From a virus: a stretch of 64,000 bases of DNA. Both the position numbers and the translations under genes were made by a program. The stretch lies in IMG/VR virus record IMGVR_UViG_3300037423_000603. The stretch is one strand, 5' to 3'. A model generated the notes under the pieces. The model was not told where the DNA came from and ran no database searches. It saw only the letters and a list, made by a program, of their open reading frames with translations. Numbering within the stretch: position 1 is the first letter of the stretch; each line of letters starts with the position of its first letter. Shown here piece by piece: positions 6,575 through 63,339 of this stretch.

Positions 6575-6577
6575 GCC

Positions 6578-7930: not shown

Positions 7931-7961
7931 GGGCGCAAAGCGCCGCATGAGGGTTTGGGAA

Positions 7962-43039: not shown

Positions 43040-43127
43040 AATCGCGGCAGGGCGACGACAGGAACCGGGCGGCCCGAATTCGCGACAGAACAGTCCAACC
43101 TGTGACAGGTCGGAGAGACGACACAAA

Positions 43128-43224
43128 GCGGCGCGCTAGGCGCGTAGCGGCTCCGGCGGTTGGACCTGATCACCCTTCTGCGTTGCTCGACAAGATGGCG
43201 CTGCAAATGCGTCACGCCGCTCCA
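43128..43224 (+). ncRNA. tRNA-like structured element, copy 2 (stand-alone unit)
   Basis: Identical to 10468..10564; lies between a promoter and a terminator with no ORF. Confidence 0.62.
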
Positions 43225-43253
43225 TCTTCCTCCCTGCATCTCCCCGCGCTATC

Positions 43254-43284
43254 GCCCGCTGGCTCCGACCGGCGGGCTCTTTTT
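43254..43284 (+). terminator. Intrinsic terminator
   Basis: GCCCGCTGG-CTCCGA-CCGGCGGGC-TCTTTTT. Confidence 0.8.
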
Positions 43285-43288
43285 CGTG

Positions 43289-43597
43289 TCAGGTTGGCTT
43301 ATCCACCAGTGGCTTTGTCCGCTTGGGCGGCACATAGCGCTGTACCAGCCTTACCTTGCCGATCGGCACCGTGATCCCAAGGTCTCTGCCGCCGACCGTC
43401 ACGCTGTCCTCGTCTACGCGCAATACCTCTCCCGTAAGCTCGATCTGCTGGCCGCGCTTGACCTTGGTGGTGGTGTCTCTGATCGAATGCGGGAAGTTGT
43501 AGCCCGGGATCGAGACACTGACCCGATCCTCGAGGACGCGACGGCGCACCGTCGCGGTGATGGCGACCTCATCGCCGACCTTGATGCCCTTGCCCAT
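43289..43597 (-). CDS. Hypothetical protein (small beta-barrel repeats)
   Basis: IKVGDEVAITATV / KRGQQIELTGEV internal repeat. Confidence 0.7.
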   Translation of the reverse strand: MGKGIKVGDEVAITATVRRRVLEDRVSVSIPGYNFPHSIRDTTTKVKRGQQIELTGEVLRVDEDSVTVGGRDLGITVPIGKVRLVQRYVPPKRTKPLVDKPT

Positions 43598-43653
43598 GGC
43601 TGGAGTCTGGCGCGCGGCTGGCGCTCGTCAAGTCTCAGCGCTATATCGGCCGG

Positions 43654-43839
43654 ATGGAACTCCAGACCGCCATCAACCAAGCCGTGGACCAGGAAGACCG
43701 GTGCGTCTCGATCACGCTGGCCATCCGACGGATCAGAGAAGCAACCGAAACAGAACTTTCCGATGTCGACCTTCAGACTGAAGTCGCCAGCGCCGCGGCC
43801 GCGCGGGGCAAGGCTATCCTGTTCGATCTGCGGTCATGA
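43654..43839 (+). CDS. Hypothetical protein
   Basis: Divergent ORF coupled to the next gene. Confidence 0.6.
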   Translation: MELQTAINQAVDQEDRCVSITLAIRRIREATETELSDVDLQTEVASAAAARGKAILFDLRS

Positions 43840-44090
43840 GCACCATCCAGGAATGCATAGACCGTGGCGAGCGCATTGCCGTACATTGCCACAATCCCGT
43901 CTGCTATCGAGAGAGCGCCTATCTCGATCTTGAAGCGCTGAAGGCCAAGCTCGGGCCGGGTCATGGGGCGATGCATTGGGATCTGGTGCCGCTCCTTCGA
44001 TGCTCCGTCTGCGGCTCCAAGAACGTCGGCATCACCATTCATGTGGACCAGCGGCCAACTGGCGATCTGAGGAGCCCGTTTAGGGGCTAG
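43836..44090 (+). CDS. Zinc-ribbon hypothetical protein
   Basis: CHNPVC and CSVCG pairs. Confidence 0.7.
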   Translation: MSTIQECIDRGERIAVHCHNPVCYRESAYLDLEALKAKLGPGHGAMHWDLVPLLRCSVCGSKNVGITIHVDQRPTGDLRSPFRG

Positions 44091-44316
44091 GCTGAAGCGC
44101 TGCATGCTCCAAGTCGGTCATGTCGAGATGCAGCACGTAGGCTAGCTGGCAGATGACGCGGAAACTCGGCTCTTGAATGTAGCCAGTTTCGATGTGAGAG
44201 ATGACCGAGTGTGGGACATCGCTGATGAACGCGAGTTCGCGCAAGCTCAGGCCACGTTCCCTCCTTGACGCGGCTAGGAACTCAGAAAGCGGCGAGGGAG
44301 TTTTCTCGCGGGTCAT
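44080..44316 (-). CDS. XRE-family HTH protein
   Basis: RRERGLSLRELAFISDVPHSVISHIETG..PSF. Confidence 0.88.
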   Translation of the reverse strand: MTREKTPSPLSEFLAASRRERGLSLRELAFISDVPHSVISHIETGYIQEPSFRVICQLAYVLHLDMTDLEHAALQPSP

Positions 44317-44543
44317 TTGCGCAATACGGAGACGGGTCGAACGATCTGCGCTCGCTGGTTGGCGATAGTCTGCGGAGCGCTGCCCCAGAAAAATTCGCCT
44401 GACGAAACGATATAGGCGTCAATCCGCCCCTCGTTGTTCCCATATTCAGTCTTGAGGCATAGTTCATCGCCGCTGAGGAACAGCCCAATTGGACATTCCT
44501 CCAGTGTGGTCGGTTCACCGGGTACGCATTCGATCTTTTCCAT
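44313..44543 (-). CDS. Phage hypothetical protein
   Basis: CLKTEYG..AYIVSSGEFFWG. Confidence 0.7.
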   Translation of the reverse strand: MEKIECVPGEPTTLEECPIGLFLSGDELCLKTEYGNNEGRIDAYIVSSGEFFWGSAPQTIANQRAQIVRPVSVLRK

Positions 44544-44700
44544 CTCGCCAATATACTCCGAAAGCCTTGTATTTCCTAGCGTTTTGCGCGATAAATGTAG
44601 CGTGGCGCTGGCCCCGACGCCCCTAGTATCGGGGCGCTTTCACCACCACCCCATCGCATGCATCACCACCCTCACCGGTAGATACACCCCCAAGACCCCT

Positions 44701-44880
44701 GACTGCTGCCAGGATAGCACTGACATCCTCCCCTAAGCGGGGTCTCCAAGAGCCGATGCCCTTGGATGGTTCGCACTTCATAGACAGCAGGCTTCCGAAA
44801 CCGAGGTCTCGGCGGCTCTTACGCCATCTCCATGCGCTGCAACCGTGTGTCCCACGGCCAAGATATTTTTAGCTGCATTC
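44701..44880 (-). ncRNA. TnpB omegaRNA (scaffold overlapping the tnpB 3' end and right end) plus predicted guide
   Basis: IS200/IS605 right-end signature CCCC-GCTTA-GGGG-AGGATGTCA ending at 44721; predicted guide GTGCTATCCTGGCAGCAGTC (44720-44701); 5' boundary approximate. Confidence 0.7.
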
Positions 44881-45920
44881 TCGTCCCGATCATGAACGGC
44901 ACCGCAGGACGGGCAGTCCCACTCGCGGGTTGACAGCGGCAAGACCGAAACGACATGCCCGCAATTAGAACACATCTTCGAGGACGGGAAGAAGCGGTCC
45001 ACTCGGACGATGCGCTTCCCGTATCGCTCGCCCTTCTCTTCAAGCATCCGCATAGCCATGCCAATACCGGCGTCGCTCAAGCTGCGGGCAAGGGCGTGGT
45101 TCTTGACCATGCCGCGCAGATGCAGATCCTCGATCGCGATCACGTCGAACTCTCTTACGAGTCGCGTGGTCAACTTATTCAGCGCATCTTTGCGCGCGTT
45201 AGAAACCTTCTCGTGGCAACGTGCCACCGCGCGCTTGGCCAACTGGCGGCGCTTCGAGCCCTTCTGCTTTCTGGCTAGGTTACGTTGCAGAAAAGCGAGG
45301 CGCTTGGCGCGTGCGTAGGAGTGCCGGGGGTTGATGATTGTCTCGCCAGTCGAAAGTGTGGCGAGGCGCGCAACGCCGAAGTCGATTCCAATGCTCTGGC
45401 CAGTCATCGGGAGCGGGTCAACGTTGACGCGCACAACGAAGCTGACGTAGTACCGTCCAGTCGGTTCGCGAATGACCGTTACCGTGCTCGGCTCGGATGG
45501 TACGTTGCGGTCCCATCGAACACGCAGAACACCAAGCTTGCCGATCTGAAGGCGGCGCCCGTCCGTCAACTTGAAGCCAGACTTGGTATAGCGAGCAGAT
45601 TGCCGCCCGTCACGGCGCTTGAAGGAAGGATACGCCGCTCGTTTGGCGAAAAAGTTGGAGTAAGCCGCCTGCAGGTCGCGCAACGCCTGTTGCAACGGCA
45701 CCGAATGCACCTCATTGAGCCATACCGTCTCGGGCTGACGCTTCAACACGGTAAGAGCCGCATCGGACTGCGCGTACAACATGCGTCGGCCTTCCTTGAA
45801 TGCCTCCGATCGTGCCGCAAGGCCCCAATTGTAGACGTAGCGCACACAGCCAAACGTGCGAGCCAAGATTTGTTCCTGCTCGGCTGTTGGGTAGCAGCGA
45901 TACGTCCACCGTTGTTGCAC
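44778..45920 (-). CDS. tnpB: RNA-guided endonuclease TnpB (IS200/IS605 family) with intact RuvC
   Basis: YRCYPT..FGCVRYVYN, GIDFG (D), IEDL (E), CSNCG/CPSCG zinc finger, DRDENAAKNI (D). Confidence 0.95.
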   Translation of the reverse strand: MQQRWTYRCYPTAEQEQILARTFGCVRYVYNWGLAARSEAFKEGRRMLYAQSDAALTVLKRQPETVWLNEVHSVPLQQALRDLQAAYSNFFAKRAAYPSFKRRDGRQSARYTKSGFKLTDGRRLQIGKLGVLRVRWDRNVPSEPSTVTVIREPTGRYYVSFVVRVNVDPLPMTGQSIGIDFGVARLATLSTGETIINPRHSYARAKRLAFLQRNLARKQKGSKRRQLAKRAVARCHEKVSNARKDALNKLTTRLVREFDVIAIEDLHLRGMVKNHALARSLSDAGIGMAMRMLEEKGERYGKRIVRVDRFFPSSKMCSNCGHVVSVLPLSTREWDCPSCGAVHDRDENAAKNILAVGHTVAAHGDGVRAAETSVSEACCL

Positions 45921-45927
45921 GTCTCTC

Positions 45928-46149
45928 CTAGGGCTGGTTGCGGATGGCGGCGGAAATGTTCATGCTTGCAATTCGCGCTTGCTGCCCGTGCGTCAGATTG
46001 TAGAAGGTCTCCGCTATCTTCGCATCCCGCTCTTTCTGTGCCGCGAGCGCATTTGCAATTAGATCGACGGCGTTCAGATATTCATGGTTGCGGAAGATCA
46101 ACTGAGCGACCCGCTCAGCCTCCTGCCTGATATGATCCTGTTTGGTCAC
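45928..46149 (-). CDS. Phage hypothetical protein directly upstream of tnpB
   Basis: ERDAKIAE..SAAIR pattern of phage early proteins; its stop TAG overlaps the tnpB RBS. Confidence 0.65.
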   Translation of the reverse strand: MTKQDHIRQEAERVAQLIFRNHEYLNAVDLIANALAAQKERDAKIAETFYNLTHGQQARIASMNISAAIRNQP

Positions 46150-46177
46150 GGCTTATCCTCTCGCTAGTGTAGCTTTT

Positions 46178-46192
46178 GTTCTGCGTCTGTGC
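46178..46192. promoter_or_regulatory. Possible alphaproteobacterial LexA box over the promoter of the 46149/tnpB operon
   Basis: GTTC-N7-GTGC (7 of 8 consensus bases) next to a minus-strand -10 TACACT at 46166-46171. Confidence 0.35.
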
Positions 46193-46211
46193 CATATTCG
46201 TGCTCGTCCGC

Positions 46212-46350
46212 ATGAGCATCATCACCTTCAAATTCAGGATCAAGGACGCCACGGTCGGGAAGCACCTCGATCGTCATGCGATCGCCTGCAACCAGGTCTG
46301 GAACTTCTGCGTCGCCACCCACCGCGAAACGGAACGTCGCCGCAAGCAGG
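46212..46350 (+). pseudogene. tnpB: Truncated N-terminus of a second tnpB
   Basis: MSIITFKFRIKD..HAIACNQVWNFC matches the TnpB N-terminal region; breaks after RRKQG. Confidence 0.7.
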
Positions 46351-46398
46351 GTAGCTTTCGGCGCGCTGTCGTAGGCGTTCGATGAGATCAGAAGACAT
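46351..46398 (-). pseudogene. Truncated phage gene start (homologue of 49066..49554)
   Basis: MSSDLIERLRQRAESY versus MADLIERLRERAESY. Confidence 0.6.
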
Positions 46399-46930
46399 AG
46401 GCATCATCCTCCGCCGGTAGCCGCGAAGCATGGGGCGGAACGCGCCCTTGGATCGTTCGACAATCCATGCCAGCGGGAGCGCCACATTCTGGGCATGCGT
46501 CATAGCCATTTTCCTGGCTATCGACCTCTGGCTGCACCTCTCTGAGAGTTTCGATGTCACGATCGATCCACAGGTCAAACGAGCCGTAGCGCTCTTGCGG
46601 GGTCATTTGCTGGAATTGCCAGCCGATAGACCATTCGGCCGGCTGCTCTTGCGTCATGGGATAGTGCGTGCCCCAATGGTCGCGCAGGTAGCGATATCGT
46701 CGAGCGTCGGCTAACTGCTTCTCAATCTCATCCGCCGCTAGCCTGAAATGGGTGGCGTCGGATCGAGCGGTAGCGTTGTCCTCTTGCTCGGCGATAACAG
46801 CGCGAGAGCGGAGTCGCTCGATCAACTTGACCGCCCTGTCATCATCGACCCACTGGTCAGCCTGCTCTTCGCGCGGATCGCGCTCAGAATAACCGCTGTC
46901 TGTCTTCCATTGGTCGTAGGTCATATTCAT
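46388..46930 (-). CDS. Phage Ead/Ea22-like protein with C-terminal zinc finger
   Basis: DARRYRYLRD motif; CPECGAPAGMDC..H. Confidence 0.65.
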   Translation of the reverse strand: MNMTYDQWKTDSGYSERDPREEQADQWVDDDRAVKLIERLRSRAVIAEQEDNATARSDATHFRLAADEIEKQLADARRYRYLRDHWGTHYPMTQEQPAEWSIGWQFQQMTPQERYGSFDLWIDRDIETLREVQPEVDSQENGYDACPECGAPAGMDCRTIQGRVPPHASRLPAEDDAYVF

Positions 46931-46939
46931 CTCCCAAAA

Positions 46940-47100
46940 GGTGCGGCACTCAGGCGAAATTCTCTAAGCGTTTTTGTGGGTCCGATCATACCAAAAAGCT
47001 GTCTTCGACGCCACCTTAGTTTTTGTTTTCATTGCGAAATTTCCGCTCGCCAACCGAATGTGTCAAATTTAGAGCCTGCATTCTAAAGGCTTATTCCCGC
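46940..47100. other. Probable att junction between the two prophages (core not resolved)
   Basis: AT-rich non-coding gap directly downstream of the integrase; GCGAAATT twice; AGCCT-N9-AGGCT inverted repeat. Confidence 0.45.
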
Positions 47101-48180
47101 TTATTTTTTCGGGCTCGATCCTGAAACCAAACGAGGTGCGGTCTTCGAGTTGTTCGCAATGCGTTCTGCGGCGACCTTTGCGAGCCGCGCTTTGTCGGCC
47201 TGTTTCGTGTAGACTTCGGCCATCGCCAGTTTCGACCATCCGAACATCGCCATAAGCTCGTGAGGGGTCGCGCCGTTGTTCGCGGCTATGGTCGCTCCAG
47301 CCTTGCGGACGCCGTGCGCGGTGCATTCGAGGCTTAGGTCCGCCTTCCTTGCCTGGCGCTGGAACCACTGGCTGAACGACTGGCCCGTATGGAACGGCTG
47401 GCCGCGCTTGTTGGTGAGGAAGATCATCTCGCCGGTAGGCGTCGCATCGATCGAGGCTTGCAGCTCGGCGAAGATCGGAAGCTGAAGGCCGGCCTTGTTC
47501 TTCTGTGCACGGATGGTCAAGAGTCCGTCCTTGACGTTCTGCCGGCCGACGGTGATGACATCCGAGCGGCGCAAGCCGGTGAAGAGAAGAAGATCCAGCG
47601 CAAGGCGCGGCTTCGTCCCGACAGGGTGTTTGGCTCGGAACTGCGCCACCTCGTCCAGCGTCCAGGTATGGTGGCCCTCGATCTTGTCCTTGCGGCGGGC
47701 AACGCCATCGCAAGGGTTTGTGTCGAGCATGTCGTTTGACATCGCCCATTTGAATAGCACCGACATGGCGACGAGGAAGTTGTTCGCACCGTGAGGGGTC
47801 TTGGCCCGGCGGTCCATGGCCTCCTGGATGTGCTTGCGCGTTATCCTGGAAAACTGCTTATCGCCGGCATCCTTGCAAACGCCTTTCAGGATGTAATCCC
47901 GCGCCATCTGGCTCGTCGGTGCCAGCGAGGCGAAATGGCCGCTGGCCTTGTAGCGCTCCACCAGCCATGCCAGCGTGCCTTTCTCGGCCTTCTGCGGCTT
48001 ATCGACAGCGACACCCGCGAGTGCGTTGGCATAGGCTGCTAGGTACTCTGGCGAGCCATATATGCCGGGAAGTCGGATGCGCTTGCCGCCCGGCCTTCGG
48101 AAGTACCAGACGGTCTTCCCATGGCGAGTGACTTCCTTGCGTTCAAACAGGCGGCGGCGGCGAGGCATGTCTTCGGTCAA
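47101..48180 (-). CDS. int: Tyrosine recombinase/integrase
   Basis: TGLRRSD (R), AQKNK (K), HGVRKAG (HxxR), FGWS..EVYT (Y). Confidence 0.95.
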   Translation of the reverse strand: MTEDMPRRRRLFERKEVTRHGKTVWYFRRPGGKRIRLPGIYGSPEYLAAYANALAGVAVDKPQKAEKGTLAWLVERYKASGHFASLAPTSQMARDYILKGVCKDAGDKQFSRITRKHIQEAMDRRAKTPHGANNFLVAMSVLFKWAMSNDMLDTNPCDGVARRKDKIEGHHTWTLDEVAQFRAKHPVGTKPRLALDLLLFTGLRRSDVITVGRQNVKDGLLTIRAQKNKAGLQLPIFAELQASIDATPTGEMIFLTNKRGQPFHTGQSFSQWFQRQARKADLSLECTAHGVRKAGATIAANNGATPHELMAMFGWSKLAMAEVYTKQADKARLAKVAAERIANNSKTAPRLVSGSSPKK

Positions 48181-52962: not shown

Positions 52963-53709
52963 TCAGCCGGCCCTCATGCTGTCGGCGTAGGCATTGCCCT
53001 TGACAGGCTTGTCACCAGGGAACTCGTCGGCGGACTGTTGATCGATCAGCTTACGCTTCGCCGTGCCGAAGTCCTGCTGCATGGCTTCGATCCATGCGCC
53101 GTTCCAGTCGTCCTTGCGGGCCTTGGCGACCCAGACCTTGTAGAGCGTGTCGAGCGCCAGGGTCGTGCCGCACTCGCTGATCTCGTGCCGCCATTGCTTC
53201 GGCAGATCATCGCCGCGCGCATCGACTTCCTTGCGCATGGATGAACTGGTGCGTGCCGCACCCTTGACGAACGACCATGGATCGGCGGTCCAGCGCTTCC
53301 ACTGTTTCTTGCCGTTCCATTCGGAGGTCTCACAGGGCACCCATGGAGCCTCCAGGGCGTAGAGATAGCGCCCGATACCCCACTTCACCGCGGCACGCTT
53401 CAGCGCGTCTGAAATGGCCCCCTTTTCGGCCTCGACGTCGCTATCGCCGGCGCCGTCCGCCTTGGTTATCCATTCGCCATCGACGCGGATCGACAGGTAG
53501 CAGATGGTCCTGGCGCCGTGGAATTCGTAGCGGTCCTGCCATTCCGACGCGCCAAGCACCGAGTCCAGCCGATCCATCACGTCGCGGGCGTCGATATAGG
53601 CAAGCGCCATCGCCTTGGTGCCGTCCTTGGTGACGGACTGCGCGCGCCAGCTAATGGCATCTCGAGGAAATTCGGCGAATAGAAGCTTGATGTCTTCAGC
53701 GGTCGGCAT
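52963..53709 (-). CDS. Rad52/Rad22-family (Sak) single-strand annealing protein
   Basis: LAYIDARDVMDRLD, KGAISDALKRAAVKWGIGRYLY. Confidence 0.92.
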   Translation of the reverse strand: MPTAEDIKLLFAEFPRDAISWRAQSVTKDGTKAMALAYIDARDVMDRLDSVLGASEWQDRYEFHGARTICYLSIRVDGEWITKADGAGDSDVEAEKGAISDALKRAAVKWGIGRYLYALEAPWVPCETSEWNGKKQWKRWTADPWSFVKGAARTSSSMRKEVDARGDDLPKQWRHEISECGTTLALDTLYKVWVAKARKDDWNGAWIEAMQQDFGTAKRKLIDQQSADEFPGDKPVKGNAYADSMRAG

Positions 53710-54389
53710 CACGCGGCCTCCCCATAAGCAACGAGCATCCGGCGATGGATTTCGCGGGTGCGCTCGACGTCGGCCCGGCAATAGGAGGCGATGCGGTCAT
53801 ATTCGCCGGCCGCCCATAGGTCTCCGATCATGGAGCCGTCGATATCGCCTTTCCCCTCCATCCCGAGAGCTAGGCAAAGACGATCCATGCCGATGGTGTT
53901 CCGCTGGCCGGCGAAAGCCGTCATCGTATCGAAGCAGTCGGCGCCCCACGGTTTCGGATCGCGCGGGAACCATGACGGCATCCTGATGCCCAGAACGATC
54001 GCGCGCTGCCAGAGGAACCGGATATCGAAATTAATTACGTTGTGGCCGATGATGGTGACGGGCGCATATGTTTCGGTCTGCACCTTCACGGCCCATGACG
54101 CGAGCACGCTTCGGATCGATTCCGCTTCGTCGGCGGCATCCTCGATCCACTGGCTTGTCGAATAGCCATCGTCCCACGCCCACCCGATGCAGCATACATG
54201 CCCTACAGAGCCGTCCAGTGCCGTCTTGGCGATGGCATCCTTTGTTGCCGCTGGCTTCTCGTCACGCTCCCACGCCGCTATCGTGTCGGCTTTCTTGTAA
54301 TTTGCCGGCGGCTTGATGGTGTCGGCGATCCGCGCATGGACTTCGGAGGATTGCGACGGAATCGTTTCGATATCGAGGTAAAGGAACAT
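53709..54389 (-). CDS. 3'-5' exonuclease (DEDD, PolB-exo-like)
   Basis: LDIET (ExoI), GHNVINFD (ExoII), YCRADV (ExoIII). Confidence 0.88.
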   Translation of the reverse strand: MFLYLDIETIPSQSSEVHARIADTIKPPANYKKADTIAAWERDEKPAATKDAIAKTALDGSVGHVCCIGWAWDDGYSTSQWIEDAADEAESIRSVLASWAVKVQTETYAPVTIIGHNVINFDIRFLWQRAIVLGIRMPSWFPRDPKPWGADCFDTMTAFAGQRNTIGMDRLCLALGMEGKGDIDGSMIGDLWAAGEYDRIASYCRADVERTREIHRRMLVAYGEAA

Positions 54390-54390: not shown

Positions 54391-54609
54391 TCAGTTCTCC
54401 TGCGATGCAAGCCTAACGGCGGTGGCGTAGTGACGCCAGAAACGGATGGCGCGACGCAACTCCAACCGATGGGCAAAGCGCCATCCCGGTTCTTTGAAGC
54501 GAAGCAGACGGGCCGCGTTCTCTCGGCACATCTTGGCGGTCTGGAAATCGGCATCCGCGCGGAACCGCTCAACAAAATCCGGGATGCGCGATAGATCGGC
54601 TTGCGTCAC
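54391..54609 (-). CDS. Hypothetical protein (near-identical to 76..285)
   Basis: Near-identical DNA. Confidence 0.75.
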   Translation of the reverse strand: MTQADLSRIPDFVERFRADADFQTAKMCRENAARLLRFKEPGWRFAHRLELRRAIRFWRHYATAVRLASQEN

Positions 54610-54833
54610 GCCGCTCTCCTGCGTTCGTTCTCGATCTCATCCGCCAGCGCGCTGAACCGCGCGGCTTCGTTAAGCTGGTGCTTGGCTTCGGCGATCTCGC
54701 CGGCATCGAGGCAAGCGTTGGCCCATCGACGGGCGCGCAGCGTCATGGCTCTGTACTGTCCTGCCGGCCTCGGCATATCGAAGTCGTAGAGCGCTCCCGC
54801 TTGGGCATACATGGCGGTCATGTGGTCGGTCAT
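54606..54833 (-). CDS. Hypothetical protein (paralogue of 282..533)
   Basis: Shared motifs. Confidence 0.75.
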   Translation of the reverse strand: MTDHMTAMYAQAGALYDFDMPRPAGQYRAMTLRARRWANACLDAGEIAEAKHQLNEAARFSALADEIENERRRAA

Positions 54834-55237
54834 GCTCTGCCACCCATGTCGCCGTTAATGGACGTCTTGCCGACCTGAACGCTGGCAGTAGAATTGCCAT
54901 CGATATGATGCGCGATAGTCTCAGCCGCCTTCTCAAGGATGGCGTTCAGGACATCGGTCGGCTCAAACTCGGTGTTGTCGGCGAAGCTCCAAAGCATCGA
55001 CCCGATAGCGGCGCCGGCGGCCTGGATGAGCAATTCGATGTCGACGCCCTTGTTGACCTGGCGAAGTTGCCAGAGGGCGAACTGGACTTGCGTTTCCTGA
55101 CAATCGATCTGCGCGTCAACAAACTGGTGGTCGCGCTTCTTCATGGAGGATGGCCGCGGCATGTCGTTCATGCCGACGAAACTGGCGCGGATGGTGCGCT
55201 CGGCTTCCGTCATGTCGTAGTGGACGTGATCCATCAC
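54830..55237 (-). CDS. Hypothetical protein occupying the slot held by the HAD gene in prophage 1
   Basis: Coupled ORF between shared flanking genes. Confidence 0.65.
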   Translation of the reverse strand: MMDHVHYDMTEAERTIRASFVGMNDMPRPSSMKKRDHQFVDAQIDCQETQVQFALWQLRQVNKGVDIELLIQAAGAAIGSMLWSFADNTEFEPTDVLNAILEKAAETIAHHIDGNSTASVQVGKTSINGDMGGRA

Positions 55238-55638
55238 ACTCCCCTCAGCCCTGCGATCTGGCGATCGATCCGCGCCTTGCGGGCCGGCACTTCCATGTGA
55301 GCTGGCGAATAGTCGAGACGGTCGCGCTCGGCTTCTAGCCTGGCGATCGCCTTCGCTTTTTGTGCCGGCGTCATCTGCATGAGCGAAGCAATTTGCTCGT
55401 CATGCTTGCGCTGGTCTTCTGCAGCGAGAAACAGCCGGTATTCGATATCTTCGACGCAGGCCCGCACGGCGCTGGAAAGGCACCAGTGATGGCTCTGATG
55501 GCCGATCCAGGCGATGTAGTCGCCATGTGCCGGCATGGTGATCACGCGGCTCTCGTGGCCTAGGCGGACTTCCCAGCGACCGGGACTGGTTTCGACGTAG
55601 CTCGCCTCGCTGGCGGTGGTCGGGGTGTGCGCGGTCAT
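55234..55638 (-). CDS. Hypothetical protein (paralogue of 1150..1560)
   Basis: Shared termini. Confidence 0.75.
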   Translation of the reverse strand: MTAHTPTTASEASYVETSPGRWEVRLGHESRVITMPAHGDYIAWIGHQSHHWCLSSAVRACVEDIEYRLFLAAEDQRKHDEQIASLMQMTPAQKAKAIARLEAERDRLDYSPAHMEVPARKARIDRQIAGLRGV

Positions 55639-55931
55639 GGCTGGGTGCCTTCGGCTTTGGCGATGACAGCTTCAATCCTGTCCAGCAAATCGCTGGCTCG
55701 GTTGAACGGCTGCACGAAGTCGGCGCATTCGTTCAGGATGGTCAGCATGTCGGGAGCAGCGGCGATCAGGCGGGCGTTTGCTTCCGCTTTACCGCTGGTG
55801 TCTTGCGGCAGTTGGCAAACGAAATAGTGCTCGCCAGCCCGAACAATGTGCGTGTACGCGTCAGACTCTTCTTGGTAGCGCCACGGCCCAGGCGTGAATT
55901 TCGTCGCTTCGCTCATAGTCGTATCCTTCAC
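55635..55931 (-). CDS. TPGPW/ANARLIAAAP-family protein (paralogue of 1557..1838)
   Basis: Shared motifs. Confidence 0.8.
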   Translation of the reverse strand: MKDTTMSEATKFTPGPWRYQEESDAYTHIVRAGEHYFVCQLPQDTSGKAEANARLIAAAPDMLTILNECADFVQPFNRASDLLDRIEAVIAKAEGTQP

Positions 55932-55946
55932 CTGGCTTGCTGGGAG

Positions 55947-56486
55947 CTATGCGGCGTCGTCTTCGAACCGTTCGACGCCCCACAGAAGTTTGTGCATGCG
56001 CCGATGCTCTTCCTCGGGCGCCTGTTCCTCGCTCCACGGCTGATCTCCGAGGCCGTCCGAATAGGTTGTGAACCGACCGACCTTGGCACTGATCGCGCCC
56101 TCATCTAAGTAGCTGTATTCGAAGCGCAATTCGCCGATGTGCCAGAGCGCCAGCAGCCAGCCGTAAGGCGTTGACCACGCCGTTTGGAACGTCAGAGTGA
56201 GCGTGTCGTCAGTCGTGGCGATGGTCTTGTAGCGGCCGCCTTCATCGATGCCGTAGGCGTTCCACTTCGTGCCCCAATTGGCGCGCGCCCAGTCGAGAGC
56301 GTTGCCGGGGAAAACGGCGTGCTTCTGGCCGACGCTGCCCTGCCAGATGTTGCTCGGGATCGGTAGAAGCGTGCCGAAGTCGATGGGGCTCTCAGGCCCG
56401 CGACAAAGCGCCAAGATCGCGCCCTGCTGGTCGGCGTCGATGTTCTTGAAGCGGATTTCAGTCAGGACGTGGTTCGGCATCATCAT
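55947..56486 (-). CDS. YubB/DUF1281-like ferredoxin-fold protein
   Basis: MPNHV, WARANWGTKWNA, LTFQTAWSTP. Confidence 0.8.
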   Translation of the reverse strand: MMMPNHVLTEIRFKNIDADQQGAILALCRGPESPIDFGTLLPIPSNIWQGSVGQKHAVFPGNALDWARANWGTKWNAYGIDEGGRYKTIATTDDTLTLTFQTAWSTPYGWLLALWHIGELRFEYSYLDEGAISAKVGRFTTYSDGLGDQPWSEEQAPEEEHRRMHKLLWGVERFEDDAA

Positions 56487-56525
56487 CTTCCTTCGTTTAC
56501 CCAGAGCATCAGGAGCGGGGAGGGG

Positions 56526-56735
56526 CTAAGGGGCGGCATCCCAATCTTTGGAAATTGCGCTTTCCGCTTCGTCACGGCTCACGCCATCCGCGATGCGATG
56601 GCCCGATCCATCAATTGACCAGACCGTGAATTTGCCGCTGTCTTCGTGGATGCAGTGCCCCGTGTCCTCAACGCCCCGATAGGACGAGCCGAACGAGCCG
56701 TTCCGGCGCATGTAAATTTTGGCGACTTGGCTCAT
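56526..56735 (-). CDS. Small hypothetical protein
   Basis: Start MSQVAKIY after GGAGAG RBS. Confidence 0.5.
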   Translation of the reverse strand: MSQVAKIYMRRNGSFGSSYRGVEDTGHCIHEDSGKFTVWSIDGSGHRIADGVSRDEAESAISKDWDAAP

Positions 56736-56791
56736 CTCGTCTCTCCTGCTTCTTCCCATCGGCCCGAGGGCTTGTTACGTGGTGTGGTGGG

Positions 56792-57439
56792 TTAGGCGGC
56801 GGCTCGCTGTTGGTGGTTCGCCGCGAACACAGCCCGAGAAAACCCGAGCGGGGTTGCCGAGCGGAAGTCTGCGCGATCTGCCGAAGGCGGGGCCTTGTGG
56901 ATGCGGTCGTCAGGCTTTCCGAGCCACGGGGCCGGCTGCTTGGGCGGCATCACAAAACCGTTGTGAGCCCAAATGCATGTCTTCTTGGTGTAGTTGTCGT
57001 CTTCGCAGAGAGCCGCGTAGTCGGACGGATCAAAGTAGAAGTCCGGCTTGCCGATATGCGGGATGCTGGAAAGGACGCCGACCGGGTTCTCGTTGAACGA
57101 CGGTGCGCCAGACCAGCGAAGCACCTGCCGACCGGCCTCGAACATCTCCAAGGCGTCGCGCAGCATGTAGCTGCCCTTCTTGAGGAAATCCCTTGCGCCC
57201 GATCCCGAGACATGGGTGCATGGCGACCAGCAAGCGCCGAATGCGACGTGCCGTCCTGCAGGCGGGGACCAGTTGCGAACGTCACCCCACACGTAGTGGA
57301 TGACGCCAGCACCTACCCGCTCTTCGCGGTCGCGGCGGATCGAATGCTCGATATCAACGCAGTAGCATTCGTATCCGGCTGCGGCCCAAGGGTGAACGAA
57401 GATGCCGGTCAGATCGCAAAGAGAGACAACGACTGACAT
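56792..57439 (-). CDS. Phage C5-cytosine methyltransferase-like protein (compact)
   Basis: VVSLCDLTG, CVDI, SPCTH (PC), ENPVG, YTKKTCIW, RSATP.GF. Confidence 0.7.
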   Translation of the reverse strand: MSVVVSLCDLTGIFVHPWAAAGYECYCVDIEHSIRRDREERVGAGVIHYVWGDVRNWSPPAGRHVAFGACWSPCTHVSGSGARDFLKKGSYMLRDALEMFEAGRQVLRWSGAPSFNENPVGVLSSIPHIGKPDFYFDPSDYAALCEDDNYTKKTCIWAHNGFVMPPKQPAPWLGKPDDRIHKAPPSADRADFRSATPLGFSRAVFAANHQQRAAA

Positions 57440-57645
57440 CACCGGCCCCACTTCTTCGCCAGTCTGGCGACGGCATCGGCAGGCGACTTACCAGCGTCGA
57501 ACATCGGCTCGACTTCGGACATGAGCGTCGGAGGAAGGCCGCGCTCCTGCGCAAGCGACTCGACCTCGAAATGCCAGTAACTGAACGCCGCGACCGGAGA
57601 CGCGAATTTCAGACTGTCCAGAAAATCGGCTGCTGCGTTCATCAT
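57439..57645 (-). CDS. Small hypothetical protein
   Basis: RBS AAGGAG; coupled. Confidence 0.6.
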   Translation of the reverse strand: MMNAAADFLDSLKFASPVAAFSYWHFEVESLAQERGLPPTLMSEVEPMFDAGKSPADAVARLAKKWGR

Positions 57646-57696
57646 CGTTCTCCTTCATCGACCGTCGGCGCGGGGCGCTGTGTGGTCTGTTGGGGT

Positions 57697-57900
57697 TCAG
57701 GCTGCTCGGCAAAGCACGATGTCGACCGAATGCCCGTCGACCTTTTCCTCGACCAGCTTCACGCTGCCGAACCGGTTGCCGTTCTCGTCCTCGACGTTGA
57801 CCGTCGCCAGATCGATGCCGGCGTCTTCAATGTCCTGCAGGAACTCGGCCAGGGTCTGCGCCTTGTCGGTAAGCGGCCGGTGGTCGGTGACGATCTTCAT
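57697..57900 (-). CDS. Small acidic protein, first gene of the PL operon
   Basis: MKIVTDHRPL start after GAGG RBS. Confidence 0.6.
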   Translation of the reverse strand: MKIVTDHRPLTDKAQTLAEFLQDIEDAGIDLATVNVEDENGNRFGSVKLVEEKVDGHSVDIVLCRAA

Positions 57901-57930
57901 GGCGGCGTCCTCTGTTGTTGAGGACCATAT

Positions 57931-58011
57931 TCGCGATAATCGCAAAGATAGTCAAGCGAAAAGATCGCGATAATCGCAAAAATGTTGACACGACATTTGC
58001 GAAGGCGCAAA
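57931..58011. promoter_or_regulatory. Left operator/PL of prophage 2
   Basis: TCGCGATAATCGCAAA at 57931 and 57965; TTTGCGAAGGCGCAAA at 57996; minus-strand TTGACT. Confidence 0.8.
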
Positions 58012-58599
58012 AGAAAAGCGCCGGCGGGATGATCCGCACGGCGCGCGAGGCAAGGTCAAAAGTCGATGCCGTTATACCGTAACAGTCAGCGGTCCGCAAC
58101 GGAAATCACCGCCTCGCGGCGCAAAATTCGCAACATCTTGCGTCTGCTCGGAGGTTCCCGGCAAGACATTGCGTCTAGAGCGCTTAAGGCGGCGGTTTTT
58201 TCTGAGGTGTCTCCCGCCTGCTCCGATCATCCGGCGCATGAAACCTCACGCGGTTCCAGGTTCAGCATAAACCTGGCGGTTGAGACGGGTAGGCGCCGTC
58301 CGAATGCTTTGGATGCGAGCTGAGGAGTAAACCGCGCGACATACCCTCAAGCTCTTGAGACGGCCTGGTCCACCGGCGGAACGGACAGCGCGGGATATCT
58401 CAACTTCATAGCATCTCGACCCGTCAGCATAGGGCTGGGTCGTAAGGGCGGAACCCCTTGGGCTTGAGGGTGAACGTCTTGATAGGTCGAGGTGCGTCTA
58501 CATTTCAGGATGAAGCATATGCGCGCGAGGGAATTTCCGTGGCGGGACGATAGCCGAACGATCAACAGATTTCCGCGGTGCCGCGCGTATTTGAAGGCC

Positions 58600-58980
58600 A
58601 TGCGGATCAAGTTCGATGACCCGTCACAGACGGATTACTGGCTGGCTGTTTCGATGTCGGATGCCTTCACGGAAAAGACCCTGGCCAAGCACGGAATCAG
58701 CTTCGACACGATGAGGGGTGCAACGCTTCTCACGGCTTTCGAGGGCATCCTTGCCGCAGAGGCCAAACCGAAGAAGCCAATCAAGGCCAAGGCGGCTACC
58801 ACACTAATAGCCGGTCTTGAGCAAATAACCGCTGCTGTAAGCGACGCGGAGATTCGCGCGGCCATGACGCCCAAGGGTGGGTGGAAGGCCAAGACGCTGG
58901 CAGGGTGGGGCGTTACATGGCCGCCGCCGCACGGATGGCGCCGGAGGCTTGTCGAAAACTTCGAGGCCCAAGCCGGCTAG
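58600..58980 (+). CDS. Hypothetical protein with C-terminal TPKGGW..LAGWGVTWPPPHGW motif
   Basis: RBS GAAGG; convergent with cI. Confidence 0.65.
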   Translation: MRIKFDDPSQTDYWLAVSMSDAFTEKTLAKHGISFDTMRGATLLTAFEGILAAEAKPKKPIKAKAATTLIAGLEQITAAVSDAEIRAAMTPKGGWKAKTLAGWGVTWPPPHGWRRRLVENFEAQAG

Positions 58981-59579
58981 CGCGGCTCCATGCTCTTCAC
59001 CTTAGCAGCCCAGACGATCTCGACATCGTTGATCGTCGGCTCGGTGTTCGAATCGAGATGGAAAAAGCCTGGCGTCTTGGCGCGGCGGATACGCTTGACC
59101 AGCACGCGGTCATCTGGAAGGCCGACTACGCATAGCACTCCGATCATGTCGGGCGTCACCGGCGAGCGCACGTCGTCATAATAGACCAGCCATTGATCGA
59201 AGAGGGCGCCCAGACTCTCGCCTCGGATCTGAACGGCAACCGTGTCAGGCGTCATTCCCTTGGGGGCCTTCACCCGCTCAAGCTCGCCCTGGGTGTCGGC
59301 GTAGAAGTGGGCGGCAGCGCCGGCGCCGACATAACCGACAAGCGGGACGGTCTCATCGTCCTCGAACGATTCGTGCTCGACGCCGAAGAATTCGCGCATC
59401 TTCTCCAGCTCATGCGCGCGTATCTCCCGAGTTTCCTTGTTCGGGTCGGTATTCATCATACGCGTGATGGCGTCAGGACGCACGTTGAGAAACTTGGCCA
59501 GCGCGCCCTTTGCACCATGGCCGCGCTTCGCCAGTTCGGCCTGACCCCAAAGCCGGATTTCTCGCTGCGGGTCGCTCAT
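58977..59579 (-). CDS. cI: CI repressor of prophage 2 (HTH plus S24 autocleavage peptidase)
   Basis: LAKFLNVRPDAITRM HTH; VGYVGAG; IRGESL (Ser); VLVKRI (Lys). Confidence 0.9.
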   Translation of the reverse strand: MSDPQREIRLWGQAELAKRGHGAKGALAKFLNVRPDAITRMMNTDPNKETREIRAHELEKMREFFGVEHESFEDDETVPLVGYVGAGAAAHFYADTQGELERVKAPKGMTPDTVAVQIRGESLGALFDQWLVYYDDVRSPVTPDMIGVLCVVGLPDDRVLVKRIRRAKTPGFFHLDSNTEPTINDVEIVWAAKVKSMEPR

Positions 59580-59589
59580 GGCGCGATAT

Positions 59590-59662
59590 TCGCGATGCTC
59601 GCAAAAATTCCTATCGCGAAGTTCGCGAAAATCGCTTGACATAAAGTCGCGATAATCGCAAA
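59590..59662. promoter_or_regulatory. Right operator/PR of prophage 2
   Basis: TCGCGATGCTCGCAAA, TCGCGAAGTTCGCGAA, TCGCGATAATCGCAAA around TTGACA (59636). Confidence 0.85.
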
Positions 59663-59672
59663 TATAGCGGGC

Positions 59673-59906
59673 ATGAGCGATACCCATCTCAATCCGGCCA
59701 AATCAGTCATCGCCAAAATCGGCATCGACAAGGTGTGCGCAATCACCGGGAAGCACGTCTCGCGCGTGTACCGGTGGATGTACCCGAAGGAGCGCGGCGG
59801 CACGGGCGGCCGCGTCCCCCAGGAAGATGCCGAGAAGCTGCTTGCTTACGCCAAGGATAAGAGCATCGACCTCTCGCCTGCAGACTTCTTTGCCGACGCG
59901 GCGTGA
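59673..59906 (+). CDS. cro: Cro-like protein
   Basis: IDKVCAITGKHVSRVYRWMYPKERGGTGGRVP. Confidence 0.85.
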   Translation: MSDTHLNPAKSVIAKIGIDKVCAITGKHVSRVYRWMYPKERGGTGGRVPQEDAEKLLAYAKDKSIDLSPADFFADAA

Positions 59907-59908
59907 CC

Positions 59909-60199
59909 TCAATGCTGGATGAAGTGATCTCCCTCGACCAGTTTCACCGCCAGTTCCCGCGCGGTCTTCAAGATCGCAAGCTGAGCATCGGCGTTCGACA
60001 TGATGATGTGAACTCTCGGGACGTAAATTACCCTGTCGCCCACCCGGCGCTCGGCTACGAGAACATGGCGCGAAACCGTGCCCATATTCTCGATACGACC
60101 GACACCAGAAACGAAATACTCCGGCACGGCGGCCGGTTCGAAAATGCTCAATTGCGCCTCCCAAACAAGCGGGGAGGTTGTTGTTGGTCTTCCCCGCAC
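59909..60199 (-). CDS. Antisense hypothetical protein after cro
   Basis: Protein-like composition (PEYFVSGVGRIE..RVHIIMS). Confidence 0.5.
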   Translation of the reverse strand: MRGRPTTTSPLVWEAQLSIFEPAAVPEYFVSGVGRIENMGTVSRHVLVAERRVGDRVIYVPRVHIIMSNADAQLAILKTARELAVKLVEGDHFIQH

Positions 60200-60422
60200 G
60201 TGAAGGCTGAAACGGATCGGCTGTCGGCTTCAAGCGCATTTCAGCAACTGTTCACCTTAAGCTCAGCTTATCAACAATCAATTGTTAACGACTGTAACCA
60301 GCGCGTGAACTTCTCGCGCGGCGGTTTCATGAGGGGTGACTAATGTCTTCTGCCCCAAAGGCAATTCGCCGCAATCGGCCCATCCTCGGGCATTCGTCTT
60401 CCCATTCGATGGAGTCCTGTTC

Positions 60423-60641
60423 ATGAGCGAGCCAATCACTTGCATCGTCTTCAAAGAGTGGACTTCCGACATGGCCGACGCGGCATATGAGTTCGCGGCT
60501 CAAATGAGTGACGAAGGCGAGCGTCAAGCAACGATTGTCGGGATGCTCCATATCGCCTGGCCCCGTCTGCTTGAGGCGTCCAGCCGCAGCTACGTCGCCG
60601 CCCTCCACTCCAAGACAGCAGACAGCGAGGCGGCGAAGTGA
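60423..60641 (+). CDS. Hypothetical protein
   Basis: MSEPITC start; tail AALHSKTADSEAAK shared with 5504..5734. Confidence 0.5.
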   Translation: MSEPITCIVFKEWTSDMADAAYEFAAQMSDEGERQATIVGMLHIAWPRLLEASSRSYVAALHSKTADSEAAK

Positions 60642-60652
60642 GCGCCTCATCA

Positions 60653-61114
60653 TCAACCCCGACGCGCGTTGCCGCTCGAAAACGGCACCGTAAACCCGCC
60701 GGCTACCTCATTCGCGTCAAGGCGCGGGCAGGGGGTAGTGACGACCGAGATTCCTCCCCTCGGGCCGGCATTTTGTCGATTAGAGTCAACCTGCCCGCAA
60801 ACCAATCCGTTGCCGTCCTCCCCACTTCCGGCAATTGGATCTCTGCCGTTTCCTCCCTCGGCAGAGTGACTGCGGCCAGAGTTCTTGAGCGCGGCGGACC
60901 CCTTAGTTGCGCTCGAACTCTGGCCGCTATTTTCCAAGGCTACGCAGGGACAGGCGGCCTCGGAACTGCAATCTTGGCCGGTGCCAAGTCCACCACCGGC
61001 AAGTGTTTTTCTCTTCTTCGCGCGCTCGTCCAGCTTCGCCAAAAGTCTACGAGCTGCGTCTTCCATGCTCTCGAATTCCCGCCAGTCGGGCTCCCTTCGT
61101 TGCTTGCTGCTCAT
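60653..61114 (-). CDS. Antisense hypothetical protein (homologue of 5740..6159)
   Basis: DWREFESMEDAARRLLAKLDER motif. Confidence 0.55.
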   Translation of the reverse strand: MSSKQRREPDWREFESMEDAARRLLAKLDERAKKRKTLAGGGLGTGQDCSSEAACPCVALENSGQSSSATKGSAALKNSGRSHSAEGGNGRDPIAGSGEDGNGLVCGQVDSNRQNAGPRGGISVVTTPCPRLDANEVAGGFTVPFSSGNARRG

Positions 61115-61175
61115 GAAAGCAACGTAGCAAAGGGTTTATGTCATGAGCGGCAAGTCACATGTAAAGGGTAACAAA

Positions 61176-61532
61176 ATGTCTGTGATCGATATCAACGATC
61201 CGATGTTTGCAGGCAGAAGCGCCAAGAAAATGGCGTCAGACCTGCTGGGGAAGTACCATCGTGGTCCGGGGGACAACATCGAGACCGCAGCATACCGTAT
61301 TCAAAGCGAGTGTGGGGTAGACGCCGATATCATTCTGCAGGGGTGGAACAGACCGCCGAGGGGGATGCTTACTCATCGTTGGCTTCCTCTTTTCCAAGCC
61401 TGGTGTGCGGCCGGCTTTGCGAGAGCTGATAGAGCGTACGACGAGGAAAGGGCGCGCCATGATGACACTTCGGCGCTTGTTAGGCTGGCTGATCTTGTGG
61501 CTGGCAAGAAAGCTGAGAGGGAAATGAAATGA
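61176..61532 (+). CDS. CII-like phage regulatory protein (putative)
   Basis: Syntenic with 6191..6574; DNIETAAYRIQSECGV. Confidence 0.5.
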   Translation: MSVIDINDPMFAGRSAKKMASDLLGKYHRGPGDNIETAAYRIQSECGVDADIILQGWNRPPRGMLTHRWLPLFQAWCAAGFARADRAYDEERARHDDTSALVRLADLVAGKKAEREMK

Positions 61533-61969
61533 GCGACATATCTGAGAAACTGTTTGACGAGACGGTACGCGTCGAAGCGATCATTTGGATTCCGGGCGCG
61601 GTGGCCGACCCGGAATCTACGCCAGATGCTTTTCGGGAAGGTTTTTTCGAGGATATCATCGACGGCAACACCGACGAACTTATGCGCTCTCTGCCGGGCC
61701 TGAAACGAGCGTTGAAAGACTCGGAATTTGCGGAAGTTATAGATGTCGCCGAGGCGCTTCTGTTCGTTCCCGGCTTCCTTGTGAAACTCGCTACGCCCAT
61801 CAGGGAATTCTATGCCGACGGCGGGTCTAGCTTCTCGTGGGGATGTTGCCGAACTGGCTGGATTTATGTCGAGAAGGAAGTCGACCTTGAGCCATCTGTC
61901 ATAAATTGGGCTCGGGCCGAAGTCGGGCGGCAAAAGGCGAAAGCCGCCGCAAAGGCTGACGCAGCATGA
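61529..61969 (+). CDS. Hypothetical protein
   Basis: Coupled ORF, acidic. Confidence 0.65.
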   Translation: MSDISEKLFDETVRVEAIIWIPGAVADPESTPDAFREGFFEDIIDGNTDELMRSLPGLKRALKDSEFAEVIDVAEALLFVPGFLVKLATPIREFYADGGSSFSWGCCRTGWIYVEKEVDLEPSVINWARAEVGRQKAKAAAKADAA

Positions 61970-62154
61970 AGCGCAAGACCATCGCCACGCTCGACGGCAT
62001 CTTCGTGCTCAACGAACTCACCGGCTTCTATGAGCCACAGACCGACGAGCCAGAAAACCACGGCCGCTGGCCTCTCTTGCACTACGCATTCCTAGCCGTC
62101 GCCGTGATCGCCATTGGCTACTGCATCGCCAAGGCTATTCACGCTCTCGCATGA
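61966..62154 (+). CDS. Small membrane protein (paralogue of 6578..6763)
   Basis: MKRKTIATLDGIFVL identical start. Confidence 0.7.
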   Translation: MKRKTIATLDGIFVLNELTGFYEPQTDEPENHGRWPLLHYAFLAVAVIAIGYCIAKAIHALA

Positions 62155-62175
62155 GCAACATGGTTTGAGGGGCAC

Positions 62176-62949
62176 ATGGACGACTACGATCCCCAAGACG
62201 ACGCCGTGAAGTCCTACTACGCCGCAATAGAGGCGAAGCGGCTGCGCGGGGATGCGGCTATCCGCAAGGAAGTGCAGATCGGCGACTGCCGGCTCATCCT
62301 TGGCGATTGCCTTGAGGTACTGCCGGCGCTCGGCAAGGTCGATGCGGTGGTGACCGATCCGCCATATGGCATCAACGCGGCGCGCGACCGCAACTCGGAG
62401 AAATGGGGCTGGCGCGATTTCCCGGTGACTGGATGGGACAAGGACCGCCCATCACCGGAAGCGTTCAAGGCCATCCTCGGGGTCGCCGACCATCATGTCA
62501 TCTGGGGCGGAAATTACTTCTCCGACCTTCTTCCCGCCTCAGATAAATGGCTTGTTTGGGACAAGTGCCAGACCGACTTCTCTCTCGCGGATGTTGAGCT
62601 TGCATGGTGCTCATTTCCCGGCGCAGCCCGTCGCATCAGCTACCCGCGCTCACGCGCCCTGCAGGATGGCAAGGTCCACCACACCCAAAAGGCCCTTGAG
62701 GTCATGTCGTGGTCGCTTGGGCAGCTTCCCAAGGGCGTCCATACCGTCTGCGATCCTTATACCGGCTCCGGGACAACAGGCGTGGCCTGCGTGAAGGCCG
62801 GCCTCTCGTTCATCGGCATTGAGGTCAACGAGCATTATTTCGACATCGCCTGCGAGCGCATACGCAAGGCGTACGCCCAGCCAGACATGTTCGTTCCACG
62901 CCCGCCAAAGCCGAAGCAGGAAAGCCTCTTCAACGGAGAGGCCGCATGA
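62176..62949 (+). CDS. Amino (N6A/N4C) DNA methyltransferase, beta-class
   Basis: TDPPYG, HHTQKA, CDPYTGSGTTG. Confidence 0.92.
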   Translation: MDDYDPQDDAVKSYYAAIEAKRLRGDAAIRKEVQIGDCRLILGDCLEVLPALGKVDAVVTDPPYGINAARDRNSEKWGWRDFPVTGWDKDRPSPEAFKAILGVADHHVIWGGNYFSDLLPASDKWLVWDKCQTDFSLADVELAWCSFPGAARRISYPRSRALQDGKVHHTQKALEVMSWSLGQLPKGVHTVCDPYTGSGTTGVACVKAGLSFIGIEVNEHYFDIACERIRKAYAQPDMFVPRPPKPKQESLFNGEAA

Positions 62950-63308: not shown

Positions 63309-63339
63309 GGGCGCAAAGCGCCACATGAGGGTTTGGGAA

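Follow-up and report, generated by a model that had tools for sequence, protein, structure and literature searches.

How does a nuclease gene of transposon origin come to lie in a phage operon with neither a transposase gene nor a transposon left end beside it, and what would it do there? The question arises from a tnpB gene in a viral DNA stretch of 64,000 nucleotides (nt), IMG/VR record IMGVR_UViG_3300037423_000603, the whole of which is called the window below. TnpB is the ancestor of Cas12, and its accepted role is the retention of its own transposon after excision by TnpA; TnpA-independent spread has been demonstrated on laboratory plasmids, and theory has suggested it for phages. An inspection of the letters alone, referred to here as the original prediction, had described this copy as catalytically intact, unable to transpose, expressed from a phage operon and perhaps able to cut the empty allele of related phages. 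We consider it highly probable that a tnpB-only IS1341-type insertion sequence (IS) entered a small phage gene, gene X, and was later immobilized by a deletion. With nuclease-driven homing or competition among phages added to this reconstruction, the account as a whole stands, in our estimate, a little better than an even chance, and we regard the nuclease-driven function taken by itself as evenly balanced.

The TnpB protein and its predicted guide RNA

The 380-residue open reading frame (ORF) carries the Pfam domains HTH_OrfB_IS605 (E 7e-18), OrfB_IS605 (E 4e-30) and Cas12f1-like_TNB (E 1e-22), which is the domain order of TnpB (helix-turn-helix [HTH], RuvC, zinc-ribbon TNB). Residues 5-370 were aligned with ISDra2 TnpB (structures 8BF8, 8EXA and 8H1J) over 366 residues (E 1e-74). 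The RuvC triad is intact, since D180 (GIDFG), E264 (IEDL) and D346 (HDRDENA) lie opposite D191, E278 and D361 of ISDra2 by manual count on the alignment; the activity of ISDra2 TnpB is abolished by D191A and by E278A (PMC8612924). The zinc-finger cysteines C317, C320, C336 and C339 are invariant in an alignment of 27 close homologues. The window TnpB is thus predicted to be a cleaving nuclease with an intact active site. Its GTG start at 45920, 7 nt past the TAG of the upstream phage gene (gene U), is right because homologues align from residue 1, and a Joint Genome Institute (JGI) gene call starting at Met47 was rejected as too short for the same reason. The catalytic residues, the zinc finger and the GTG position had all been read correctly in the original prediction.

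More than 100 related loci were gathered to define the ends of the element. In all of them, a conserved block continues past the tnpB stop and closes in ..GGAGGATGTCA followed by A or G, after which the sequences are unrelated. This conservation halts abruptly in 34 related loci, which places the right end of the window element at 44721 or 44720. The end had been predicted at 44721, and the predicted guide position was likewise confirmed to within 1 nt, the guide starting at 44720 or 44719. An RNAalifold consensus of 25 loci contained 37 base pairs, 23 of them with compensatory changes. Its stems are kept in the window (e.g., GGCCGTG/CACGGTT versus GGCGGTC/GACCGTT in relatives), and the same stems formed when the window scaffold was folded alone; an Rfam scan of 43500-47500 gave no match. 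Right ends of the family close in TCAA or TCAG. This terminal motif is intact in the window as TCAG, and the hairpin next to it is reduced to 4 bp from the 8-bp stem with a TTCA-type loop seen in relatives, the full form being present in the closest relative, P0002.

A search of the window with the guide returned only the guide itself, in agreement with the original prediction, which had seen no second copy by eye. In IMG/VR, the guide gave three 17-mer matches that lacked a transposon-associated motif (TAM) and lay in unrelated contexts, and we treated them as chance; patterns for TAM plus target and for gene X were absent from that database. Among 401 genomes, there was one match with a single mismatch, again at chance level. 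The informative match came from a phage contig without tnpB, described below.

The missing left end and the allele without tnpB

In 15 distinct relatives, the element opens with a left-end hairpin followed by a GGGGAGGGATAG box about 150 nt before the ATG and by a promoter-like TTG..TA box. All three features are present in P0002, whose TnpB is 86% identical in amino acids. The hairpin and the GGGGAGGGATAG box are absent from the window and from contig L036, which belongs to a different phage with the same TnpB, and a motif scan of the window, including the region in and upstream of gene U, returned chance-level matches only. No Y1 transposase domain (Y1_Tnp) is on record within 6 kb on either side. 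Nor was a promoter-like site found between 44000 and 47300, a result consistent with, without proving, read-through transcription from the integrase-side operon. All copies of the tnpB cassette that we found sit at one phage locus. The predicted lack of tnpA and of a left end is thereby confirmed. The inability to transpose is supported by the loss of the left end, of the TAM and of the element's own promoter, and expression from a phage operon by a start codon fused to a phage ribosome-binding site.

Relatives with complete ends provided a candidate TAM. Outside their left ends, the base pattern is TCAC at 11 of 14 distinct junctions, TTAC at two and TCAT at one, and TCAC is the predicted TAM of this TnpB family. 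The P0002 locus (L151-L154) is a complete IS with both ends and the promoter-like site, and the P0003 locus (L042-L051; 83% amino acid identity) has complete left and right ends. Both are IS1341-type elements like the window element, with which they share the TnpB clade, the omegaRNA scaffold and the right-end motif ..GGAGGATGTCAG; unlike it, they keep the left-end hairpin and GGGGAGGGATAG box, the promoter-like site, an ATG start and the 8-bp right hairpin. The P0003 tnpB is an ordinary IS copy, antisense between primase, helicase, DUF2303 and NrdR-like genes of another phage- or plasmid-like element and its position does not change among more than 20 contigs of several runs. Other collections yielded little: megablast against plasmids found no match, blastn against phages found one weak 81-nt match, a scan of genome contigs found relatives of at most 51% identity plus one partial match at 66%, and a search of IMG/VR found no close copy of the window tnpB.

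The empty allele was reached by searching outward through a conserved 84-residue neighbor. This search led to L144, a 13-kb contig from the same soil study that has no tnpB and whose gene order is gene U (93 residues, ending ..AIRNQP), a ribosome-binding site AGGAGAGAGACGC, gene V (63 residues, phrog_22853) and gene X (33 residues). Gene X of L144 (3366-3467, minus strand) encodes a small hydrophobic protein, MMRWSILL...HAMGWW. Within it, the sequence reads ..CTCAC-C-GCTATCCTGGCAGCAG.., and homology with the window begins 2 nt after TCAC. The 80-nt tail downstream of the window element is open in one frame, ..GVLGVYLPVRVV(M/L)HAMGWW plus a stop, and corresponds to gene X from codon 9 on. Four of the five tail substitutions between the window and L036 are synonymous in the gene X frame, the fifth exchanges Met and Leu, and the stop is kept. 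A tblastn search of phage records with the gene X peptide gave no match.

TCAC lies directly 5' of a 16/17 match to the guide in gene X of L144, an arrangement that we read as the signature of a genuine IS200/IS605 insertion 3' of a TAM. Since the guide matches gene X there, the frozen guide would point at intact gene X. The allele without the gene thus contains a recognizable target, whereas the carrier has TCAG instead of TCAC in front of its own guide-matching DNA and would be protected. The TnpB-less allele was found in three JGI samples from the same soil study, and in two of them the TnpB-positive phage is present as well. The original prediction had pointed to a guide search in this DNA and in related phages, and to a comparison of arms with and without tnpB that would define the empty site and the TAM. 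The window itself yielded nothing beyond the guide, and L144 supplied the match, the empty allele and the TCAC.

How the left end was lost can be read from three sequences. L144 has ..GGAGAGAGACG followed by CATGGGC at the start of gene V, L036 has ..GGAGAGAGACG followed by TGCAACAACGG, and tnpB of relatives starts with ATGCAACAACG. One deletion, with one end 2 nt ahead of the gene V ATG and the other at the A of the tnpB ATG, would explain both the GTG and the borrowed ribosome-binding site, and the same deletion would have removed gene V, codons 1-8 of gene X, the TAM, the left end and the element's promoter. In this reconstruction, the tnpB-only element would have inserted 3' of TCAC inside codon 9 of gene X in a temperate soil phage, and the later deletion would have fused the ribosome-binding site of gene V to tnpB. 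The product would be an immobile cassette, 45951..44642, in which tnpB and the omegaRNA scaffold are followed by what remains of gene X, now a frozen guide. We place considerable confidence in this course of events.

Some further observations concern genes V and X and the slot that they occupy. In L144, gene V (3464-3655, minus strand) overlaps gene X in an ATGA, and gene X is translationally coupled to it. Both genes are dispensable in the TnpB-positive phages, and most differences among several gene X alleles are synonymous. Between gene U and the 84-residue gene lies a hot spot for accessory genes: in L142 (5400-6128), gene U is followed by a 78-residue ORF in the place of tnpB, and L143 (6240-6730) has a HicB-like antitoxin there. 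A third variant was found on a 3421-nt Logan contig around window positions 44536-44635. It is more abundant (depth 25-64), keeps 100 nt past the tail, has a gene X allele ending ..GQWAGWW and a stop, and its spacing is too short for tnpB.

The shared cassette and its possible function

The identical TnpB protein was found on JGI soil-metagenome contigs, some of which come from the window phage itself. L036, from a different phage, has only 45951..44642 in common with the window, and its flanks gave no BLAST match; L039 combines the left flank of the window with the right flank of L036 and is therefore a recombinant haplotype. A base-by-base comparison of the window with L036 showed no difference in a 1215-nt core, which begins at the GTG and reaches guide position 15. 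The edges are different: a GA indel lies in the ribosome-binding region, and a 4-nt indel and 5 substitutions lie in the 80-nt tail. The core (0 of 1215 nt) and the tail (6 of 78 nt) thus differ in divergence (Fisher p = 4e-8), so that the core was exchanged very recently between the two phage backgrounds, with older divergence kept in the edges. With its 1215-nt core identical in at least two backgrounds, the cassette forms an island of near identity that is sharply bounded in phages otherwise unlike each other.

On the left, the homology with L036 comprises the last 8 codons of gene U, its stop and the ribosome-binding site (45921..45951), with identity from 45951. Gene U homologues ending in AIRNQP, AIRQS or AVRNQ.. 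are found in L036, L142, L143 and L144. On the right, the co-inherited unit reaches 44642, 80 nt past the right end. The original prediction, which had placed the unit at 44701-46149, had set its extent on this side too short. Both right-flank types that were examined always carry the cassette (17 and 6 contigs), and searches for empty sites through the 73-residue, 76-residue and L036 93-residue neighbors gave TnpB-positive contexts only. The short contigs L140, L141, L157 and L158 were rejected as empty sites, their ends being assembly breaks inside tnpB. A joint of 44566 to 45922 on Logan contigs was weak, coming from a single contig with a 26-nt side, and was not counted as a deletion joint. 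An exact look-up of the 84-residue protein of L036 found it not on record.

In L036 (7002-7139, plus strand) and also in L039, an ATG overlapping the tnpB stop opens a 45-residue frame through the omegaRNA scaffold. This frame is in phase with the gene X remnant, which makes a hydrophobic C-terminal fusion peptide possible, and it is broken in the window by the 4-nt insertion; a protein search with the L036 ORF gave no candidates. A 52-residue ORF at 44623..44781 was rejected as a gene because the 4-nt indel shifts its frame between phages.

What could such a cassette do? In relatives, the RNA bound by TnpB is about 150 nt long and comes from its own 3' region; about 16 nt of flank serve as guide, a TAM is required, and the ISDra2 enzyme makes its cuts, with 5' overhangs, at 15-21 bp from the TAM (PMC8612924). 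Cutting of the empty site leads to recopying of the element (PMC10055086), and IS605 was spread by TnpB without TnpA between plasmid copies (PMC11870625; PMC13565253). By analogy, the window TnpB would be translated within the integrase-proximal accessory operon, load an omegaRNA from its own transcript and cut TCAC plus gene X in cassette-free siblings upon co-infection or when a lysogen is superinfected. The break would either destroy the rival or be repaired with the TnpB-positive genome as template, possibly by a phage Rad52-type recombinase, with the end of gene U and the 3' end of gene X as homology arms and the cassette copied in. Such TnpA-independent, "non-restorative" homing would resemble that of the free-standing homing endonuclease genes of T-even phages, and the carrier would be immune through the TCAG, not TCAC, 5' of its own guide-matching DNA.

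The allele boundaries suit this proposal. The window, L036 and L144 agree through target position 17, except at position 1 in L144, and diverge from position 18, which is within the cut zone of ISDra2. Past about position 18, the gene X allele of L036 is of the L144 type, unlike that of the window. Because the alleles differ past that point, each recipient would have kept its own DNA to the right of the break, and both the divergence point and the allele pattern fit conversion. The phage Rad52-family annealing protein could repair breaks through short homologies. The integrase-headed gene order is found in L036 and L144 as well. On the strongest version of this view, the cassette is a natural RNA-guided gene drive among temperate phages that converts siblings at gene X, its right crossover left exactly at the cut site and the position-1 change of L144 being perhaps a resistant variant. 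We put this version forward tentatively, at somewhat less than an even chance. The predicted cutting of the empty allele of related phages has nonetheless gained support from the L144 target and the identical core.

Several points weigh against nuclease-driven homing or competition. The right-end hairpin of the window has a 7-nt gap relative to 24 of 24 relatives, which may impair binding of the RNA by TnpB. The sole guide mismatch in L144 is at TAM-proximal position 1 (C versus T, a synonymous Thr change, ACC/ACT), where it may weaken cutting or mark a resistant survivor allele. The TAM assigned to the window orthologue is carried over from its relatives, no RNA sequencing run with the locus is listed, and every sequence comes from a metagenome contig. 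Ordinary short-junction recombination, without any nuclease, can also give mosaic phages an identical core, and with zero substitutions since immobilization, purifying selection on the immobile copy is unmeasurable.

The last two points bear on the alternative that survives best, a recently crippled, functionless IS that is intact through its youth and was spread by ordinary modular recombination. We think it unlikely, though it deserves serious weight. It accommodates the absence of substitutions among copies, which leaves no selection test, as well as the shortened hairpin and the frameshifted gene X remnant of the window; the region is highly mosaic, with different slot genes in L142, L143 and L144, and the L039 haplotype is plain recombination at this very place. 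It is harder to reconcile with a deletion that gave an in-frame start served by a ribosome-binding site instead of a dead gene, with the constant presence of the cassette in both right-flank types, and with a perfect-identity right edge that coincides with the predicted cut zone of a real, TAM-bearing target in co-occurring phages.

An active nuclease might also serve the phage in another way, through superinfection exclusion without copying, as a TnpB-toxin addiction module with an HTH protein, or as a nuclease for a host site, which we judge improbable. Killing without conversion is known for phage homing endonucleases, the pairing of a TnpB toxin with a DNA-binding antitoxin has been proposed (PMC13565253), and the window has an XRE-type HTH gene two genes downstream. 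However, L036 and L039 have the cassette without this HTH gene and the 76-residue gene, the guide matches the window nowhere but at its own position and gives only chance-level matches in IMG/VR and the 401 genomes, and an identical core in different backgrounds shows that copying occurred.

A still mobile IS, with a cryptic left end further upstream, the 73-residue ORF as passenger and TnpA in trans, is largely refuted and has a very small probability. Although tnpB-only IS1341-type elements are normally moved in trans and relatives with proper ends occur in other phage-like contigs, the homology with L036 extends only 31 nt past the GTG on the upstream side and stops within the conserved end of a phage gene, motif matches to a left-end box or hairpin do not exceed chance anywhere in the window, every copy is at one same locus, and the carrier lacks the TAM found next to the target in the empty allele. 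That the protein is a TldR-like transcription factor, guided by RNA to bind DNA without cutting it, is hardly credible, since, although prophage-encoded TnpB derivatives of that kind exist (PMC10705468), this one retains all three RuvC residues and its whole C-terminal zinc-finger/RuvC-III region, and the guide matches coding sequence in other phages, not a promoter.

Nuclease-driven homing or competition therefore stays our preferred reading of the cassette. The term "domesticated" in the original prediction goes further than the data, as the pattern fits a selfish element as well as a phage-serving one, and "prophage" likewise finds no footing in the window, which contains no host genes and no tRNA. 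The coordinates of all features are collected in Table 1.

Table 1. Features of the tnpB locus and of associated genes in the window
Feature	Position	Strand	Description and basis
tnpB	44778..45920	(-)	380 aa, GTG start; Pfam, PDB alignment; phrog_506, E 7e-128
omegaRNA scaffold	44721..44860	(-)	Overlaps the tnpB 3' end, closes at the right end ..GGGGAGGATGTCA; RNAalifold
Right-end terminal hairpin, shortened	44730..44742	(-)	CCCC-GCTTA-GGGG; alignment of relatives
Guide region	44701..44720	(-)	First ~16-20 nt past the right end; gene X codons 9-15
4-nt insertion relative to L036/L039	44702..44705	(-)	Target positions 17-22; frameshifts the gene X remnant
Gene X remnant	44642..44720	(-)	3' part, ..GVLGVYLPVRVVMHAMGWW and stop; right homology arm common to L036, L039 and L144
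Deletion joint (predicted)	45921..45930	(-)	Gene U TAG plus GAGAGAC; putatively captured gene V ribosome-binding region abutting the tnpB GTG
Gene U	45928..46149	(-)	73 aa, conserved small phage gene, ends ..AAIRNQP and stop
Tyrosine integrase	47101..48180	(-)	Pfam Phage_integrase; heads the same-strand accessory arm
Rad52/22-family annealing recombinase	52963..53781	(-)	Pfam PF04098, E 1.7e-15

Two properties of the window as a whole were also noted. Positions 1-8110 and 54412-64000 are collinear at 80-95% identity with a spacing of about 54-56 kb; the window comprises more than one genome length of two related, different phages, which may reflect a tandem lysogen or the joint assembly of two strains. 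Positions 10467-10564 and 43127-43224, 32.7 kb apart, form a perfect 98-nt direct repeat. In four soil runs, the bin 43103-43303 had about 7-10 times the contig depth of its neighbors in three runs and less in the fourth, and the repeat element seems common to many more genomes than that of the window phage.

Comparison with known systems

The protein family, the guide-RNA logic, TnpA-independent homing and the nuclease-dead, end-less TnpB derivatives of prophages (TldR) are known already. In the literature searched, we found no published natural case of a nuclease-intact TnpB without a left end in a phage operon for which a co-occurring target allele was identified. The locus described here adds a natural example in which a complete IS in a close relative, an empty TAM-bearing allele in the same soils, the deletion that would have wired the gene into the phage, and an identity edge in the cut zone can be viewed together. 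Should the nuclease prove active, it would mean that RNA-guided enzymes are able to leave the transposon cycle and persist as phage homing or competition genes, which would make this cassette a plausible intermediate between a transposon accessory gene and Cas12- or TldR-like systems serving a host or a phage. An active enzyme would also be a compact TnpB whose TAM is of the TCAC type and whose natural target is defined.

The closest biochemical reference is ISDra2 TnpB (Karvelis 2021, PMC8612924), with which the window protein shares the domain order, the catalytic triad, a scaffold at the 3' end of the gene, a guide made of flanking DNA and a TAM placed 5' of the target. As a complete transposon, ISDra2 has tnpA and a left end, and its TAM is TTGAT, whereas the window element has no left end, no tnpA, a predicted TCAC-type TAM and a shortened hairpin. 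The plasmid IS605 "gene drive" (PMC11870625; PMC13565253) resembles our proposal in that an empty orthologous site is cut and its repair copies the element. That system is an intact IS on laboratory plasmids; the window cassette, in contrast, is truncated and fused to a phage operon, and its evidence comes from natural phage populations. TldR (PMC10705468) is likewise a TnpB relative with a fixed guide and no transposon ends in temperate phages. It has lost RuvC activity and represses host promoters, unlike the window protein, which keeps its active site and whose guide matches phage coding sequence.

In its genetic layout, the cassette is reminiscent of SegF, SegB and Mob, the "intronless homing" genes of T-even phages. 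These also lie between conserved phage genes, have their target in the allele that lacks them, and appear as islands of identity with sharp edges in divergent phages. The T-even enzymes depend on protein-DNA recognition, whereas the window TnpB is predicted to use a 16-nt RNA guide and a TAM. Self would then be told from non-self by the presence of the cassette together with a one-base difference between the TAM of the target and the transposon-encoded motif of the carrier (TCAC versus TCAG).

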